From contig JAFDZW010000001.1 of the NCBI GenBank assembly GCA_018266755.1, positions 85,635 to 149,634 of the forward strand: a stretch of DNA of 64,000 nt, read 5' to 3'. Every line of letters begins with the position of its first letter. The stretch's first letter is position 1. Both the position numbers and the translations under genes were made by a program. Source of the stretch: Bacteroidota bacterium. Its GTDB lineage: Bacteria > Bacteroidota > Ignavibacteria > Palsa-1295. The notes beneath the pieces were generated by a model. It saw nothing but the letters and a program-made list of their open reading frames with translations. It searched no databases and was not told the origin of the DNA. Positions 5,363 through 17,469 of this stretch are shown here, piece by piece.

Positions 5363-5449
5363 GGAAGGGTGCAAGAGTGGTTTAATTGGCACGCCTGGAA
5401 AGCGTGTGTGCGTGAAAGCGTACCGAGGGTTCGAATCCCTCCCCTTCCG
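5363..5449 (+). tRNA. tRNA-Ser (anticodon GGA)
   Basis: Acceptor stem GGAAGGG/CCCTTCC, anticodon stem CACGC/GCGTG with loop CTGGAAA, long variable arm, T-arm GAGGG-TTCGAAT-CCCTC, discriminator G. CCA is not encoded. Confidence 0.8.
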
Positions 5450-5559
5450 CTAAGATTATGCAAAAGATTCCCTAATTCCCCTCTCTTTTGTATCTTGCAT
5501 TTCCCTTGTTGTGTGTGTATATTTACAGGCAATCTATTACAAAGTATTGCCGCCTAGTG

Positions 5560-6012
5560 ATGAACTATCGTACCATGAATACTACTGTCACCGCATCTTC
5601 CGTTCTCGGAAGGTCGCTTGCGCTTCTTTGCATCTGTGGATTATTTTCCTGTTCGCAGCCGTCGTCCGGTCCGAACGAGGTTTCGGTCGTGCCAACCTTC
5701 CAGAAGGACGGGGCCATGAGGGCTCAGTCCGATGATAAGAAGAAGGACAAAAAACTCTCGATCAGGAATAAATCAAAGCATGATGTTACCGTCGACGTCA
5801 CCTTCGACAGCGGGGATGCAGATTCATTCTCCTGCAATAGCGGGACAAACACCGACTATCAAGTGGGAGGGACCGCATCGGCGCTGAGCCTCAATAGTAC
5901 CTCGATTTCATCCAATACCGCCACAACCATCACGCTCAGTGACGGCTCACAAATCACTGTGACGTGGGATGGGAATGTTATTGTTGTTGTAGACACTCTT
6001 GAGATGAACTAA
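5560..6012 (+). CDS. Small secreted lipoprotein, member 1 of a conserved C-terminal-tail family (…TVTWDGNVIVVVDTLEMN)
   Basis: Start taken at MNYRTMNTTVTASSVLGRSLALLCICGLFSCSQ (signal peptide plus a Cys lipobox-like site). Ser/Thr-rich mature part of about 120 aa. The C-terminal 19 aa are nearly identical to the ends of the ORFs finishing at 8384 and 8854. Confidence 0.6.
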   Translation: MNYRTMNTTVTASSVLGRSLALLCICGLFSCSQPSSGPNEVSVVPTFQKDGAMRAQSDDKKKDKKLSIRNKSKHDVTVDVTFDSGDADSFSCNSGTNTDYQVGGTASALSLNSTSISSNTATTITLSDGSQITVTWDGNVIVVVDTLEMN

Positions 6013-6053
6013 ATTCTCTATTGAAGTAGTACGCGGTCCTTCGTAGAGGAAGT

Positions 6054-14207: not shown

Positions 14208-17200
14208 CTACTCCATCCTCAACCCCGCGATCTCCTTCACCGCTTTCACCGTTTCGAGGCTGACCGTGATGACTTGTTTGATGAGGCGTAGGATATAGCC
14301 CTCGTCATCCTCGCGGTTCGGGTCGTTGGTGATGCCGCTGCGTTTGTCGGTCGAGACTTGGTATTGGTCGATCACCCACTCGAGCGCGCTGCGGTTACCG
14401 AGTTTGTAGTCGAACACTTCCGGCGGGATGCCGCGCAGCGTCAGGTCGGCGTTGTAGATGAGCGACGCTTTGTCTTTCGTCAGCTTCATCTTCTCCACCC
14501 GCAGGTTCAGGACCGAACCCTTGCGCCACTCTTCTTCGAGGTCGAACTCCTTCGCAGACTCGTAGTTCACGTGCAGATCGGCAAGATGCTTGCCAAGCTC
14601 CGAGATCCGGAAAAAGTCCGGCGAGATCGGCACGCGCGGTAACTCCCGGCGCAAGTTCGCCGCATACTTCGTCCGATACTCAGGATGATGCAGAATGCCG
14701 TAGATGTAATAGAAGATGTCCCACTTCGTGACCTCCTTCTTGGTCTTCAGCTTTGTTTTGAATTGCTCAAGCGCCCAATCGGTGATGTTCTCTTTTCTGT
14801 TGGTGCCATCTTCGTTGTAGGTGTAAAACGCGAAGCACTGGCTATTTGGAGTTAGCTGTACATCCGGCAAGATGTTTGTCGCGAGCGCCGAGAAAGGCGA
14901 ACTCATTCCAATGCCGTGCAGACTTATCACAAGATTTTCCTTCTCCGATTCCGGGGTAGGCAATATCCGTGTAAACTGGTAGGTTCGCTCTATTAATGCC
15001 TTCTCAAAGTAGACGAATTGACGTTCAAAGGGCCTCTGTAGTACCACCCGGACATTTTCATCATCAACAATCAGCTGCTTACCTTTGCGCAATTTGTTCT
15101 TAAGGCCCTCGCTCCACGCAATCTTCCTGTCATCATAGTCAGTTGTGGGATCAAGTTCTAGCCGCTTTCCAGCATTAGCGAGCTTGATCAAGTGACGATT
15201 GAACTCATCGGTGAGCGTTGTAACATTCTTGAGTAATGCGCCTTCGTCGAAATTATATATCCATTGATCCCGATTTGTCTTTATTCCACTCGAGTAAATC
15301 TTGAAGATGGTACCACTACCACCAGCCGCCTTGCCTTCCTTAGTCCCCATCGCTAGGAGGCTGTCAAACCCTTCAATCATTCCGGCTGTCAACCAATTCC
15401 CTTTAGCACTTGGCTCCAAACGTTGCCAATCAATGCCCGTGACGTCAACTGCAGTGCTCAGAGCAGAATACTTTTCGCTCTTGCGAGCGAATTCATCAGT
15501 CCTCGAGTAATAAATTGACGCTGTTGTGCCCTTCTTATGAGACTTCCGCCGGACAAGGATATTTATGCTAACGCCTACCTGGATCCCAAATACGTTATGC
15601 GTTGTGCCCGACAGTTTAGGGTTCTTGCGGACATTCCCTCCGAGGTTGAAAATAAATATCTCATCAAACTCTTCAGATAGCTGCTTCCGCATGCCATCGA
15701 AAGCGACATCTTCAAGAAAGCTAGAATTTGAAACGAAAGAGATGACGCCCTCTCCATTAGCTATAACTCTGTCGCTCGCAAAGCGAAATGCCTTTACATA
15801 TGGATCAGAAAGTGCAATCTTGTTCGTTGCCCGACTTTCCTTTGAGTAAGATTCTGATACACGCTTGTCAATAACCGGATACTTACGATTCTTATTGTTA
15901 TCGTTCTCATTCACTTGGCCTGCATTGTATGGTGGATTGCCAACAATGACAAAGATTGGTGATTGCTTCTGGCGTTTGACGCGCTCCGTATTTTCTGTAG
16001 AGAACAGGGCTCCCTGGTCCGGCTCCGCAAGCTCGAACGTATCCACCAGACAGATCCCTTCGAACGCCTCATACTTCCCGACCTCGGAGTAGTACTCGTG
16101 CTCGATGTTCATGCTTGCGATGTAATAGGGCAGGAGCATGACCTCGTTGCAGTGGAGTTCGTTCTTGTATTTATGAGGTAATGCGGTGCGCTTGATCTCG
16201 CGCATGATGCGCATGATGAAGTTGCCGGTCCCGACGAAGGGGTCGAGGATATGGACGTTCTTATCCGAGAGCGAGCGGTCGAACTCGGTCTTGAGGATAT
16301 GCTCGACCGAGCGCACCATAAAATCGACGATGGGCTGCGGCGTATAGACGATGCCGTGCGTATCCGCGACCTTCACCGCGAAGCCCTGGAAGAACTTCTC
16401 ATAGACGGTGTTCAGGAAGTGCTGCTTCTGGCTCCAGTCGGTGATGGATTTCGCGCGATTTTCGAGCGCGACATAGAAATGATCGAGCGGCGCGAAGAAC
16501 TGATGGCGGTTGAAGCTCTGCGAAGTGAGGGCGTCGATGACGGTCTCTATCTCGGCGGCGATGACGTTGCGGCGCAGGAACTCGGCGTTATCGAACACCG
16601 ACGAGAATATGCGCGACGTGAGCAAGTGCTGGACCAGCATTTCCTCAATCGCAGGATCGGCAAGGTTCGGGTTGATCGAAGCACGGCAGAGCTCGGCGAA
16701 GGTCTTGAATGCCTCTTTGAAGCGAGTATTTGTTTTCTTCTCCTCCTCGATCATCGAGATAAGCTTCTCGGCTGATTCCGGGATGCGCTGTTTGAACTGC
16801 GCGACGAGTTCTTCCCAATCGGCCTGTTCGTCGGCCTTGTAGCCGAAGAACGTTTCGAGGCATGCGACGAGGCGTTCGGGCTGGGTCAGGTCGTAGGTAT
16901 CGACGAGGATGCCGTCCTGGTACAGTACAGCAAGATCAGGTTGCTGAAACAGAATGTTACTCTTGGGGTAGCCCTTTTCAAACTTCGCTTTGATCTCCTT
17001 TTTCAGATCATCTTGCGTGTCCTTTGCTTCCCAGAAACCCATGGGGGTCGTCATGGCATCAGTCAACGCACCGTCAACCGAACCCTTGTTCTTATTCGCG
17101 AGTGTGATCGTATATTCTTCGGTGAGCGTCCATTTCAGCTTCTTGGCGTAAAAGGAGAGCAGGTCGGCGAATGCCCCGCGTACAGAGGTCTCTTTGGTTA

Positions 17201-17276
17201 CGCCGTTCTTCGAGTAGATCGCGAGCGCAGCGTAGTAATTCTTAATGGGCTTATGGGACGGCTTGATGTCGAGCAT
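14208..17276 (-). CDS. Single-polypeptide type IIG/IIL restriction-modification enzyme (MmeI/PglX-like N6-adenine DNA methyltransferase with N-terminal nuclease-like region and C-terminal specificity domain)
   Basis: 1022 aa. SAM motif I ILDPFVGTGNF, catalytic motif IV VIVGNPPYNAGQ, and a C-terminal region with ILHHPEYRTKYAANLRRELPRVPI, the conserved block shared by MmeI-family and BREX PglX proteins. No separate restriction or specificity genes and no other BREX genes nearby. Confidence 0.6.
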   Translation of the reverse strand: MLDIKPSHKPIKNYYAALAIYSKNGVTKETSVRGAFADLLSFYAKKLKWTLTEEYTITLANKNKGSVDGALTDAMTTPMGFWEAKDTQDDLKKEIKAKFEKGYPKSNILFQQPDLAVLYQDGILVDTYDLTQPERLVACLETFFGYKADEQADWEELVAQFKQRIPESAEKLISMIEEEKKTNTRFKEAFKTFAELCRASINPNLADPAIEEMLVQHLLTSRIFSSVFDNAEFLRRNVIAAEIETVIDALTSQSFNRHQFFAPLDHFYVALENRAKSITDWSQKQHFLNTVYEKFFQGFAVKVADTHGIVYTPQPIVDFMVRSVEHILKTEFDRSLSDKNVHILDPFVGTGNFIMRIMREIKRTALPHKYKNELHCNEVMLLPYYIASMNIEHEYYSEVGKYEAFEGICLVDTFELAEPDQGALFSTENTERVKRQKQSPIFVIVGNPPYNAGQVNENDNNKNRKYPVIDKRVSESYSKESRATNKIALSDPYVKAFRFASDRVIANGEGVISFVSNSSFLEDVAFDGMRKQLSEEFDEIFIFNLGGNVRKNPKLSGTTHNVFGIQVGVSINILVRRKSHKKGTTASIYYSRTDEFARKSEKYSALSTAVDVTGIDWQRLEPSAKGNWLTAGMIEGFDSLLAMGTKEGKAAGGSGTIFKIYSSGIKTNRDQWIYNFDEGALLKNVTTLTDEFNRHLIKLANAGKRLELDPTTDYDDRKIAWSEGLKNKLRKGKQLIVDDENVRVVLQRPFERQFVYFEKALIERTYQFTRILPTPESEKENLVISLHGIGMSSPFSALATNILPDVQLTPNSQCFAFYTYNEDGTNRKENITDWALEQFKTKLKTKKEVTKWDIFYYIYGILHHPEYRTKYAANLRRELPRVPISPDFFRISELGKHLADLHVNYESAKEFDLEEEWRKGSVLNLRVEKMKLTKDKASLIYNADLTLRGIPPEVFDYKLGNRSALEWVIDQYQVSTDKRSGITNDPNREDDEGYILRLIKQVITVSLETVKAVKEIAGLRME

Positions 17277-17379
17277 AATGGGTACAAATATAAGTTACGG
17301 CGGGAGAATGCTTATCAATATACGGGGTAGAGGGCGTAGCGATCAGGCCGGGAGTTCGGCTACGGAGGGAAAACGAGAG

Positions 17380-17469
17380 CGGAGAGGGAGGGATTCGAAC
17401 CCTCGATAGCGCTTTACACACTATGACGGTTTAGCAAACCGTTGCCTTCAGCCACTCGGCCACCTCTCC
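17380..17469 (-). tRNA. tRNA-Ser (anticodon GCT)
   Basis: The reverse complement reads GGAGAGGTGGCCGAGTGGCTGAAGGCAACGGTTTGCTAAACCGT...GAGGGTTCGAATCCCTCCCTCTCCG. Anticodon loop TTGCTAA, long variable arm, 7-bp acceptor stem. Confidence 0.8.

Follow-up and report, generated by a model that had tools for sequence, protein, structure and literature searches.

The DNA examined here, hereafter called the window, is a stretch of 64,000 nucleotides (nt) from a Bacteroidota bacterium (Ignavibacteria, Palsa-1295 in the GTDB lineage), in which two tRNA-Ser genes bracket an interval of 12 kb. We found that this interval is a mosaic of three ages and not one accessory region. Its oldest component is an ancient Kapabacteria backbone consisting of tRNA-Ser(GGA), a set of small proteins that share a C-terminal tail, the 509-amino-acid (aa) protein p509, two LiaF-like proteins, tRNA-Ser(GCT), and lipB. 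A gene for a flavin amine oxidase is a later, clade-level addition. The third component is a young islet of 6.05 kb (positions 11328 to 17378) beside the 3′ end of tRNA-Ser(GCT), which holds a repeat block, a hicA toxin gene, an antitoxin candidate, the orphan gene p431, and a gene for a restriction-modification (RM) enzyme. This islet is probably an ordinary defense hotspot that operates without an integrase, with cassettes being replaced between conserved flanks. As such, it would offer a clean and small example of its kind from a barely studied phylum, one that is unsurprising to specialists. For annotation, the case illustrates that an inward-facing tRNA pair combined with low GC content is insufficient to define an island.

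Both tRNA genes were confirmed, with their 3′ ends pointing inward, as had been noted from the sequence before any comparison was made (hereafter the original prediction). ARAGORN placed tRNA-Ser(GGA) at 5363-5450 on the plus strand and tRNA-Ser(GCT) at 17379-17469 on the minus strand, leaving 11,928 bp between them. Rfam agreed with both calls and, when searched at E ≤ 1 over 4500-18500, returned no other RNA. To the right of the interval lies lipB, whose product places the window among metagenome-assembled genomes (MAGs) of Candidatus Kapaibacterium/Kapabacteria, with a best identity of 73-74%. Scans of the genome collection and of metagenomes with LipB yielded nothing above 74% identity, and the extra metagenome loci that they returned were without synteny. 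The window's own genome is a MAG in NCBI, with locus tags from JSS75_00345 onward. A sister strain was found by way of p509 and RM homologues and a cluster look-up. We read synteny from tblastn searches of the window's open reading frames (ORFs) against related loci (given here by L numbers), from direct inspection of ORFs, and from the gene tables of contigs bearing p509.

One gene order recurred among these relatives: tRNA-Ser(GGA), the small-protein gene sp1, p509, short sp genes, in some genomes the amine oxidase, a LiaF-TM gene, a LiaF-like gene, a slot, tRNA-Ser(GCT), a second slot, and lipB. The convergent tRNA pair itself, with the place and orientation of tRNA-Ser(GGA) preserved, was present in three other lineages. 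These were L123, which belongs to the genome of L004 and has a p509 that is 61% identical to the window's and an inter-tRNA distance of 9,885 bp, and L125 and L013, whose p509 proteins are each 41% identical and whose distances are 5,170 and 4,269 bp, respectively. Positions 1-11297 of the window were colinear with L123, including, on the left of tRNA-Ser(GGA), RND-MFP-OEP efflux genes together with a 159-aa gene, and the backbone of 5451-11327 was also found in L013, L125, L002, and L007. On the right, the arrangement lipB-paaDCBA was common to the window, L001, L002, L004, L005, and L007, and tRNA-Ser(GCT) adjoins lipB in many relatives. Because the same convergent pair and the same gene order occur in other lineages, we conclude that the tRNA pair is ancestral synteny and that 5451-11327 is backbone. 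There was no insertion at tRNA-Ser(GGA), where the adjoining gene, sp1, is part of that backbone and directly follows the tRNA in every genome in which the tRNA was seen. The claim that the interval as a whole collects non-core genes thus held for 11328-17378 only.

The flavin amine oxidase (8997-10547, plus strand; 516 aa, assigned by family match) had been left out of the gene list of the original prediction. The window, the sister strain, L002, and L004/L123 all have it here, and it is absent from L013, L125, L126, and L007. Its confinement to the window's wider clade indicates an older addition made at the level of that clade. Beyond it, a LiaF-TM-like membrane protein of 59 aa (10554-10733, minus strand) belongs to the conserved backbone, and a LiaF-like protein of 189 aa (10758-11327, minus strand) is the last backbone gene before the variable slot. 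LiaF-like proteins had been predicted and two such genes are present, with matches that fall below the curated cut-offs (23.3 bits against 27 for LiaF-TM and 17.3 against 57 for LiaF_C_term); their orthologues in relatives carry PF22570.

The slot that follows, defined as the DNA that separates the LiaF-like gene's start from the 3′ end of tRNA-Ser(GCT), differed strongly among genomes. In the window it is filled by the 6.05-kb islet, whose genes all lie on the minus strand and may form an operon. In L003, L007, L010, L013/L015, and L126, which represent at least three independent lineages, it is empty and measures 15 to 110 bp. In L002 and L125 it spans ~1 kb and contains a gene for a beta-propeller lipoprotein, no remnant of which was found in the window, while in L004 it reaches 4.5 kb and holds that lipoprotein together with a PPDK/Rph-like enzyme and a RibD_C protein. 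None of the 130 fetched loci contained a match to HicA, the antitoxin candidate, or p431. The RM gene was likewise without a match in the 42 related loci tested; its homologues in L128, L129, and L130 were fetched by a search for the enzyme itself. The slot 5′ of tRNA-Ser(GCT) is variable too, with 64 bp to 9 kb preceding lipB in relatives, which argues that variability is a property of the neighborhood and not of an attachment (att) site at the tRNA 3′ end. A recombination-driven hotspot without an integrase had been suggested for the entire interval, and this description fits the 6.05-kb slot and is not supported for the rest. As to the nature of the cargo in L004 (3039-7379, equivalent to L123 2329-6669), the rifampin-phosphotransferase-like PPDK_N/Rph protein and the dihydrofolate-reductase-like RibD_C protein are of a resistance type and not a defense type.

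Turnover in the slot could be followed at short range in the sister strain, which is ~88-94% identical to the window at the nucleotide level. A single assembly (Logan SRR24111729) contained a p509 homologue (99% identity), an RM homologue (75%), and a protein from the same 90% cluster as the LiaF-like protein. Two of its contigs are colinear with the backbone: L124 corresponds to window 5380-8893 (92.9% identity) and L127 to window 8865-11421 (94.5%). In window coordinates the two share 29 nt, consistent with their being neighboring contigs of a single genome. A third contig, L128, opens within tRNA-Ser(GCT), of which it has the last 29 nt, continues with the same 100-bp spacer, and then encodes an RM allele (131-3196) at the same site as in the window. 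In place of p431, it has an ADP-ribosyltransferase-like gene (PF03496/PF01129, with a weak match to XopAI) overlapping a 186-aa gene (3209-4302), two genes that could be a toxin-immunity or defense pair. Next comes a palindrome shared with the window (window 12859-12891), after which the contig passes directly to the equivalent of window 11990-11797. Absent from the sister strain, therefore, are ~840 bp comprising the antitoxin candidate, hicA, and one hairpin repeat, and the sequence TGGGC forms a microhomology at both junctions of this segment. Rapid turnover between close strains was thus seen in one strain pair, from metagenome contigs. Taken with the conserved flanks, the pattern suggests that islet content would turn over by segment replacement, through homologous or microhomology-mediated recombination.

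Neither the islet nor the rest of the interval bore traces of site-specific mobility. We sought att remnants with the 3′-terminal 20 to 24 nt of both tRNAs at up to three mismatches, with a repeat finder, and with blastn-short after masking the tRNAs. None was present in the window, and the repeat finder returned nothing but the inverted match between the two tRNAs themselves. The one other short match to a tRNA end (11 nt at 11926-11936) was at chance level (E ~ 1), lay in the wrong orientation, and was not conserved in the sister strain. The original prediction had named complete synteny and a lack of att-like tRNA fragments as evidence that would speak against it; the fragments are indeed lacking, and conservation extends over about half of the interval. 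Its observation that no integrase is present was borne out, the ORFs being either assigned to other families or orphans. Six-frame Pfam scans of the only sizeable intergenic stretches, 4503-5362, 7584-8162, and 11328-12151, for remnants of integrases or transposases likewise gave no families. GC content was lower (41-49%) over 5-9 kb, but GC at third codon positions (GC3) and codon usage were host-like gene by gene, and we rejected the GC dips as evidence of foreign origin either way. The low GC of the RM gene results from its amino acid composition.

Several histories could produce an islet in this position. One is an integrase-borne island that inserted site-specifically at the 3′ end of tRNA-Ser(GCT), with its integrase and distal att site since deleted or eroded. 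The islet does abut that end, with the RM start codon 102 bp from the tRNA; tRNA 3′ ends are established as classic integrase targets (PMC5635113); and other lineages hold other cargo in the same slot. In these respects, and in being absent from relatives and carrying accessory or defense genes, the islet resembles tRNA-integrated genomic islands. It departs from them in having no integrase, no direct repeat of the tRNA end even at the mismatch level searched, and no atypical codon usage. Moreover, the intergenic DNA contains no remnant of an integrase or transposase, genes are packed too densely to accommodate one, no integrase appears in the 4.5 kb seen of the sister strain, and a mechanism acting at a 3′ att site does not explain why the 5′ side of the tRNA is equally variable. 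We consider a decayed island unlikely. A second history involves no insertion, with the RM gene, p431, and hicBA being ancestral to the lineage and the shorter slots arising by independent deletions. The host-like codon usage and GC3 would agree with this, as would the RM gene at the same site in the sister strain and an RM homologue with 55% identity (P0083) encoded by the Kapabacteria-related sequence OY969726.1. Such differential loss is nevertheless quite improbable given the lineages with an empty slot and three others with unrelated cargo, the lack of any trace of p431 or hicBA in the relatives' loci that we fetched, the lack of any homologue of p431, and the distribution of the RM family, which is patchy across many phyla at ~56% identity and has its closest members in unrelated contexts. 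Finally, the proposal that the whole 12 kb is accessory and grew out of old insertions at the 3′ ends of the two tRNAs is hardly credible. The inward-facing ends and the GC of 41-49% over 5-9 kb had pointed that way, but 5451-11327 is colinear with L123 and shares its backbone with L013, L125, L002, and L007, sp1 keeps its place next to tRNA-Ser(GGA), and the low-GC genes bear no sign of a phage or mobile element.

An integrase-less hotspot with cassette replacement between conserved flanks has ample precedent. According to Oliveira et al. (2017, PMC5635113), an integrase is encoded by fewer than half of hotspots, 27% are without any mobility protein, and recombination is more frequent in the flanking core genes. 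Like these hotspots, and like defense hotspots of E. coli and Pseudomonas (PMC10121019, PMC10250203), the slot has a fixed position between conserved genes and a content that depends on lineage; it carries defense genes (RM and toxin-antitoxin) without integrase or transposase, and its mosaic structure is consistent with recombination in the flanks. It differs from known cases in being very small (four genes), in being documented from two close strains plus distant relatives, and in including one orphan secreted cargo gene. Several considerations weigh against a defense hotspot of this type. The comparators are either distant (LipB identity of 57-74%) or a single fragmentary metagenome strain, whose contigs L124, L127, and L128 are tied to one genome by inference only. 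The islet genes have host-like GC3 and codon usage (z of −0.3 to +1.2 relative to the window mean), so there is no compositional sign of recent foreign origin, and any acquisition was not a recent one from a compositionally distant donor. Recombination is something we infer from mosaic patterns of identity, and insertion in this lineage is formally inseparable from repeated loss in relatives. Among the genes themselves, p431 has no defense signature, and the 128-aa gene is called an antitoxin from its position only.

The largest gene of the islet (14208-17276, minus strand) encodes a 1022-aa DrdV-like Type IIL enzyme, that is, a single-chain Type IIG RM enzyme, as had been predicted. The assignment follows from a full-length match to DrdV (PDB 7lo5; residues 20-1017 aligned, E = 6e-192), from the PADLOC model REase_MTase_IIG, and from the Pfam families ISP_coupler, N6_Mtase, and Type_ISP_C. 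The protein can also be aligned with the Type ISP enzymes LlaBIII and LlaGI, over their C-terminal two-thirds; its length of 1022 aa leaves no room for a helicase domain. In DrdV, an N-terminal PD-ExK nuclease (D64, E79, K81, and E25) is followed by a connector, a methyltransferase (295-635), and a target-recognition domain (636-1029) (bioRxiv 10.1101/2021.01.06.425610). The window's enzyme has the domain order of DrdV/MmeI-type Type IIL enzymes, with a PD-ExK nuclease, a helical connector, a gamma-class N6-adenine methyltransferase with NPPY, plus a target-recognition domain at the C terminus. Its residues D68, E83, K85, and E29 align with the four DrdV nuclease residues, and it contains the S-adenosylmethionine-binding motif DPFVGTGNF and the motif GNPPY. 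With all catalytic residues conserved and these motifs intact, it looks like a functional Type IIL enzyme without an ATPase. By analogy with the family, it would methylate one strand of an asymmetric host site and would cut unmodified incoming DNA once several bound molecules meet, as shown for DrdV.

The family to which this enzyme belongs is very large, with 8000 matches at E < 1e-50, and homologues from Cyanobacteria, Acidobacteriota, Chloroflexota, Planctomycetota, and Desulfobacterota were uniformly ~56% identical. Such patchy spread over phyla is the pattern expected of a mobile defense gene. The closest homologues (66-67% identity) occur in unrelated contexts, each followed by a different defense-like gene. 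The gene after the RM homologue encodes Mrr in L129 and a deaminase/HATPase_c_4 protein in L130. Compared with the window's enzyme, the sister-strain allele is 95-100% identical in residues 1-450 and 850-1022 and only 22-50% identical in residues ~500-800, a stretch reaching from the end of the methyltransferase domain to midway through the target-recognition domain. The recognition region therefore differs between the strains, in what looks like a natural specificity swap by recombination, a feature that sets this allele pair apart from DrdV. The two alleles could be used for mapping specificity determinants of Type IIL enzymes and for studying the exchange of defense cassettes without dedicated mobility genes.

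The second candidate defense module of the islet is smaller. The hicA gene (12152-12376, minus strand) encodes a 74-aa toxin that narrowly passes the Pfam cut-off for HicA_toxin (PF07927; 27.7 bits against 27), matches phrog_353 ("toxin"; 7e-8), and is named HicA by NCBI. Upstream of it is a gene for a putative antitoxin of 128 aa (12376-12762, minus strand), whose stop codon overlaps the start of hicA. The predicted hicBA pair was therefore upheld for hicA, and the identity of its neighbor as HicB was not demonstrated. The 128-aa protein had no match in Pfam at E ≤ 1, in NCBIfam, or in a sequence search of the PDB, and a single-sequence AlphaFold 2 (AF2) model of low confidence (predicted local distance difference test [pLDDT] of 49) gave no meaningful fold match with Foldseek. 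Neither protein's cluster has a second member among 15 billion sequences. Like HicAB type II toxin-antitoxin systems, the pair combines a HicA-domain toxin with a small, translationally coupled upstream gene, and it behaves as a module that is present in one strain and absent from the other. Unlike in them, neither a HicB nor a DNA-binding domain could be detected in the upstream protein, and the antitoxin gene comes first. From its family, HicA would be an mRNA interferase restrained by its neighbor.

Between these genes and the RM gene lies p431 (12902-14197, minus strand), an orphan of 431 aa with a signal peptide and a C terminus ending in F. The signal peptide bears out the expectation of a secreted protein in the interval. 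The gene occupies the cassette position directly downstream of the RM gene, where other genomes have defense-like genes. Among 5.8 billion clustered proteins p431 retrieved only itself, and it matched no family in Pfam, PADLOC, NCBIfam, or PHROGs; its N-terminal part is possibly Calx-beta-like. We also considered p431 as a relative of the beta-propeller lipoprotein in the slots of L002, L004, and L125, and the two proved unrelated.

At the other end of the islet is the non-coding repeat block that had been described, extending over about 11392-12037. It begins with three tandem 42-nt units (11392-11525), each containing a hairpin with a 9-bp stem, GGACGGACT-CTC-AGTCCGTCC, and the array folds with z = −8.1. 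Two 82-nt direct repeats that are 91% identical follow (11536-11617 and 11674-11755), and then a terminator-like hairpin with a T-rich tail on the minus strand (11767-11800; ΔG of −29.3, z of −6.3), which is likely the end of the islet's transcription unit. A solitary fourth copy of the hairpin repeat (11991-12037; hairpin 11995-12019) falls exactly on one border of the hicBA indel that separates the window from the sister strain. Further along, between p431 and the antitoxin candidate, a perfect palindrome with a 15-bp stem (12859-12891) is conserved in the sister strain and bounds both cassette differences. The hairpin repeat occurs in four copies in the window, where none would be expected by chance. 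It had no Rfam match and no copy in the first 122 loci fetched; the sister contig L127 carries the first unit at its end. We rejected a CRISPR reading of the 42-nt array because the "spacers" are similar to one another. In the one strain pair available, strong hairpins (12859-12891 and 11995-12019) mark where the two cassette differences stop. An unlinked enzyme might use these hairpins for recombination, resembling an integron-like cassette array without an integrase, a suggestion that we regard as weaker than the peptide-receptor reading of the sp/p509 cassette given below.

The low-GC genes near tRNA-Ser(GGA) (~5560-8854) had been taken for an AT-rich tail-protein cassette, and this could not be sustained. 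They had no match in Pfam, NCBIfam, PHROGs, or PADLOC, and in relatives they are conserved chromosomal backbone. A phage origin was rejected on the grounds that PHROG matches are lacking, that the cassette is chromosomal backbone in at least eight genomes, and that p509 resembles tetratricopeptide repeat (TPR) proteins. The cassette consists of sp1 (5560-6012, plus strand), p509 (6054-7583, minus strand), sp2 (8238-8384, plus strand), and sp3 (8411-8854, plus strand), with a strong terminator after sp3 (8946-8967). Both sp1 and sp3 encode lipoprotein-like small proteins of the backbone; sp2 encodes a short form of 48 aa, and a 48-aa gene is called in the sister strain as well. All three end in IVVVDTLEMN. 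Between the divergent p509 and sp2 genes is an AT-rich spacer of 650 bp (7584-8237; GC of ~41%) that is colinear and ~93% identical in the sister strain. No convincing ORF and no Rfam match was found in it, and it presumably holds the divergent promoters of p509 and sp2.

Homologues of p509 numbered 61, at ~510 aa each, and those with a source name came from Kapabacteria or Bacteroidota MAGs; together with synteny, this marks p509 as Kapabacteria specific. An AlphaFold model built on a 35-sequence alignment predicted an all-helical solenoid (pLDDT of 86; predicted template modeling score of 0.79). The best PDB matches were weak (E ~ 5e-3) and were to the peptide-binding TPR proteins LGN, RapI, P58IPK, and Tom70/71. 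In every Kapabacteria genome examined, the cytoplasmic protein p509 is flanked by two to four small-protein genes; the cassettes lie at L013 5703-8764, L123 9129-12092, L125 8897-11925, L126 8230-13573, L002 1560-1921, and L007 905-1218. Some of the sp proteins are lipoprotein-like and 110-150 aa long, others are short (47-69 aa), and the family is tiny, with eight representatives at E < 1e-3 among 1.84 billion. Within a genome, all copies have one C-terminal tail in common and are otherwise dissimilar. Between genomes the tail varies: it is IVVADTLEVN in L002, IVVIDTNEV[NS] in L123, IVIVDQNEL in L013, IIDQNEF in L125, and VVQDQSIVQ in L126. By analogy with RNPP-type quorum sensing or with TPR proteins that clamp EEVD peptides, the tails could be ligands of p509 in a peptide-receptor pair, an idea that we consider rather improbable. 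If true, it would amount to a type of cell-cell signaling or sorting system without a described counterpart in this phylum, and the sp/p509 cassette is the only element of the interval that could open a new question.

Two minor observations concern other positions. In the distant relative L126, a gene for an IS200/Y1-type transposase (11705-12088) stands beside the sp/p509 cassette where tRNA-Ser(GGA) would be expected, and no tRNA-Ser(GGA) was detected at that place. A tblastn search of the window with this transposase gave nothing significant. Downstream of the window's paa genes, a 150-aa ORF (21662-22114) is also present in L001, is found in L003 between tRNA-Ser(GCT) and lipB, and is missing at that place in L002, L004, L005, and L007. 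This patchy distribution indicates that small-scale variation also occurs outside the interval bracketed by the two tRNA genes.

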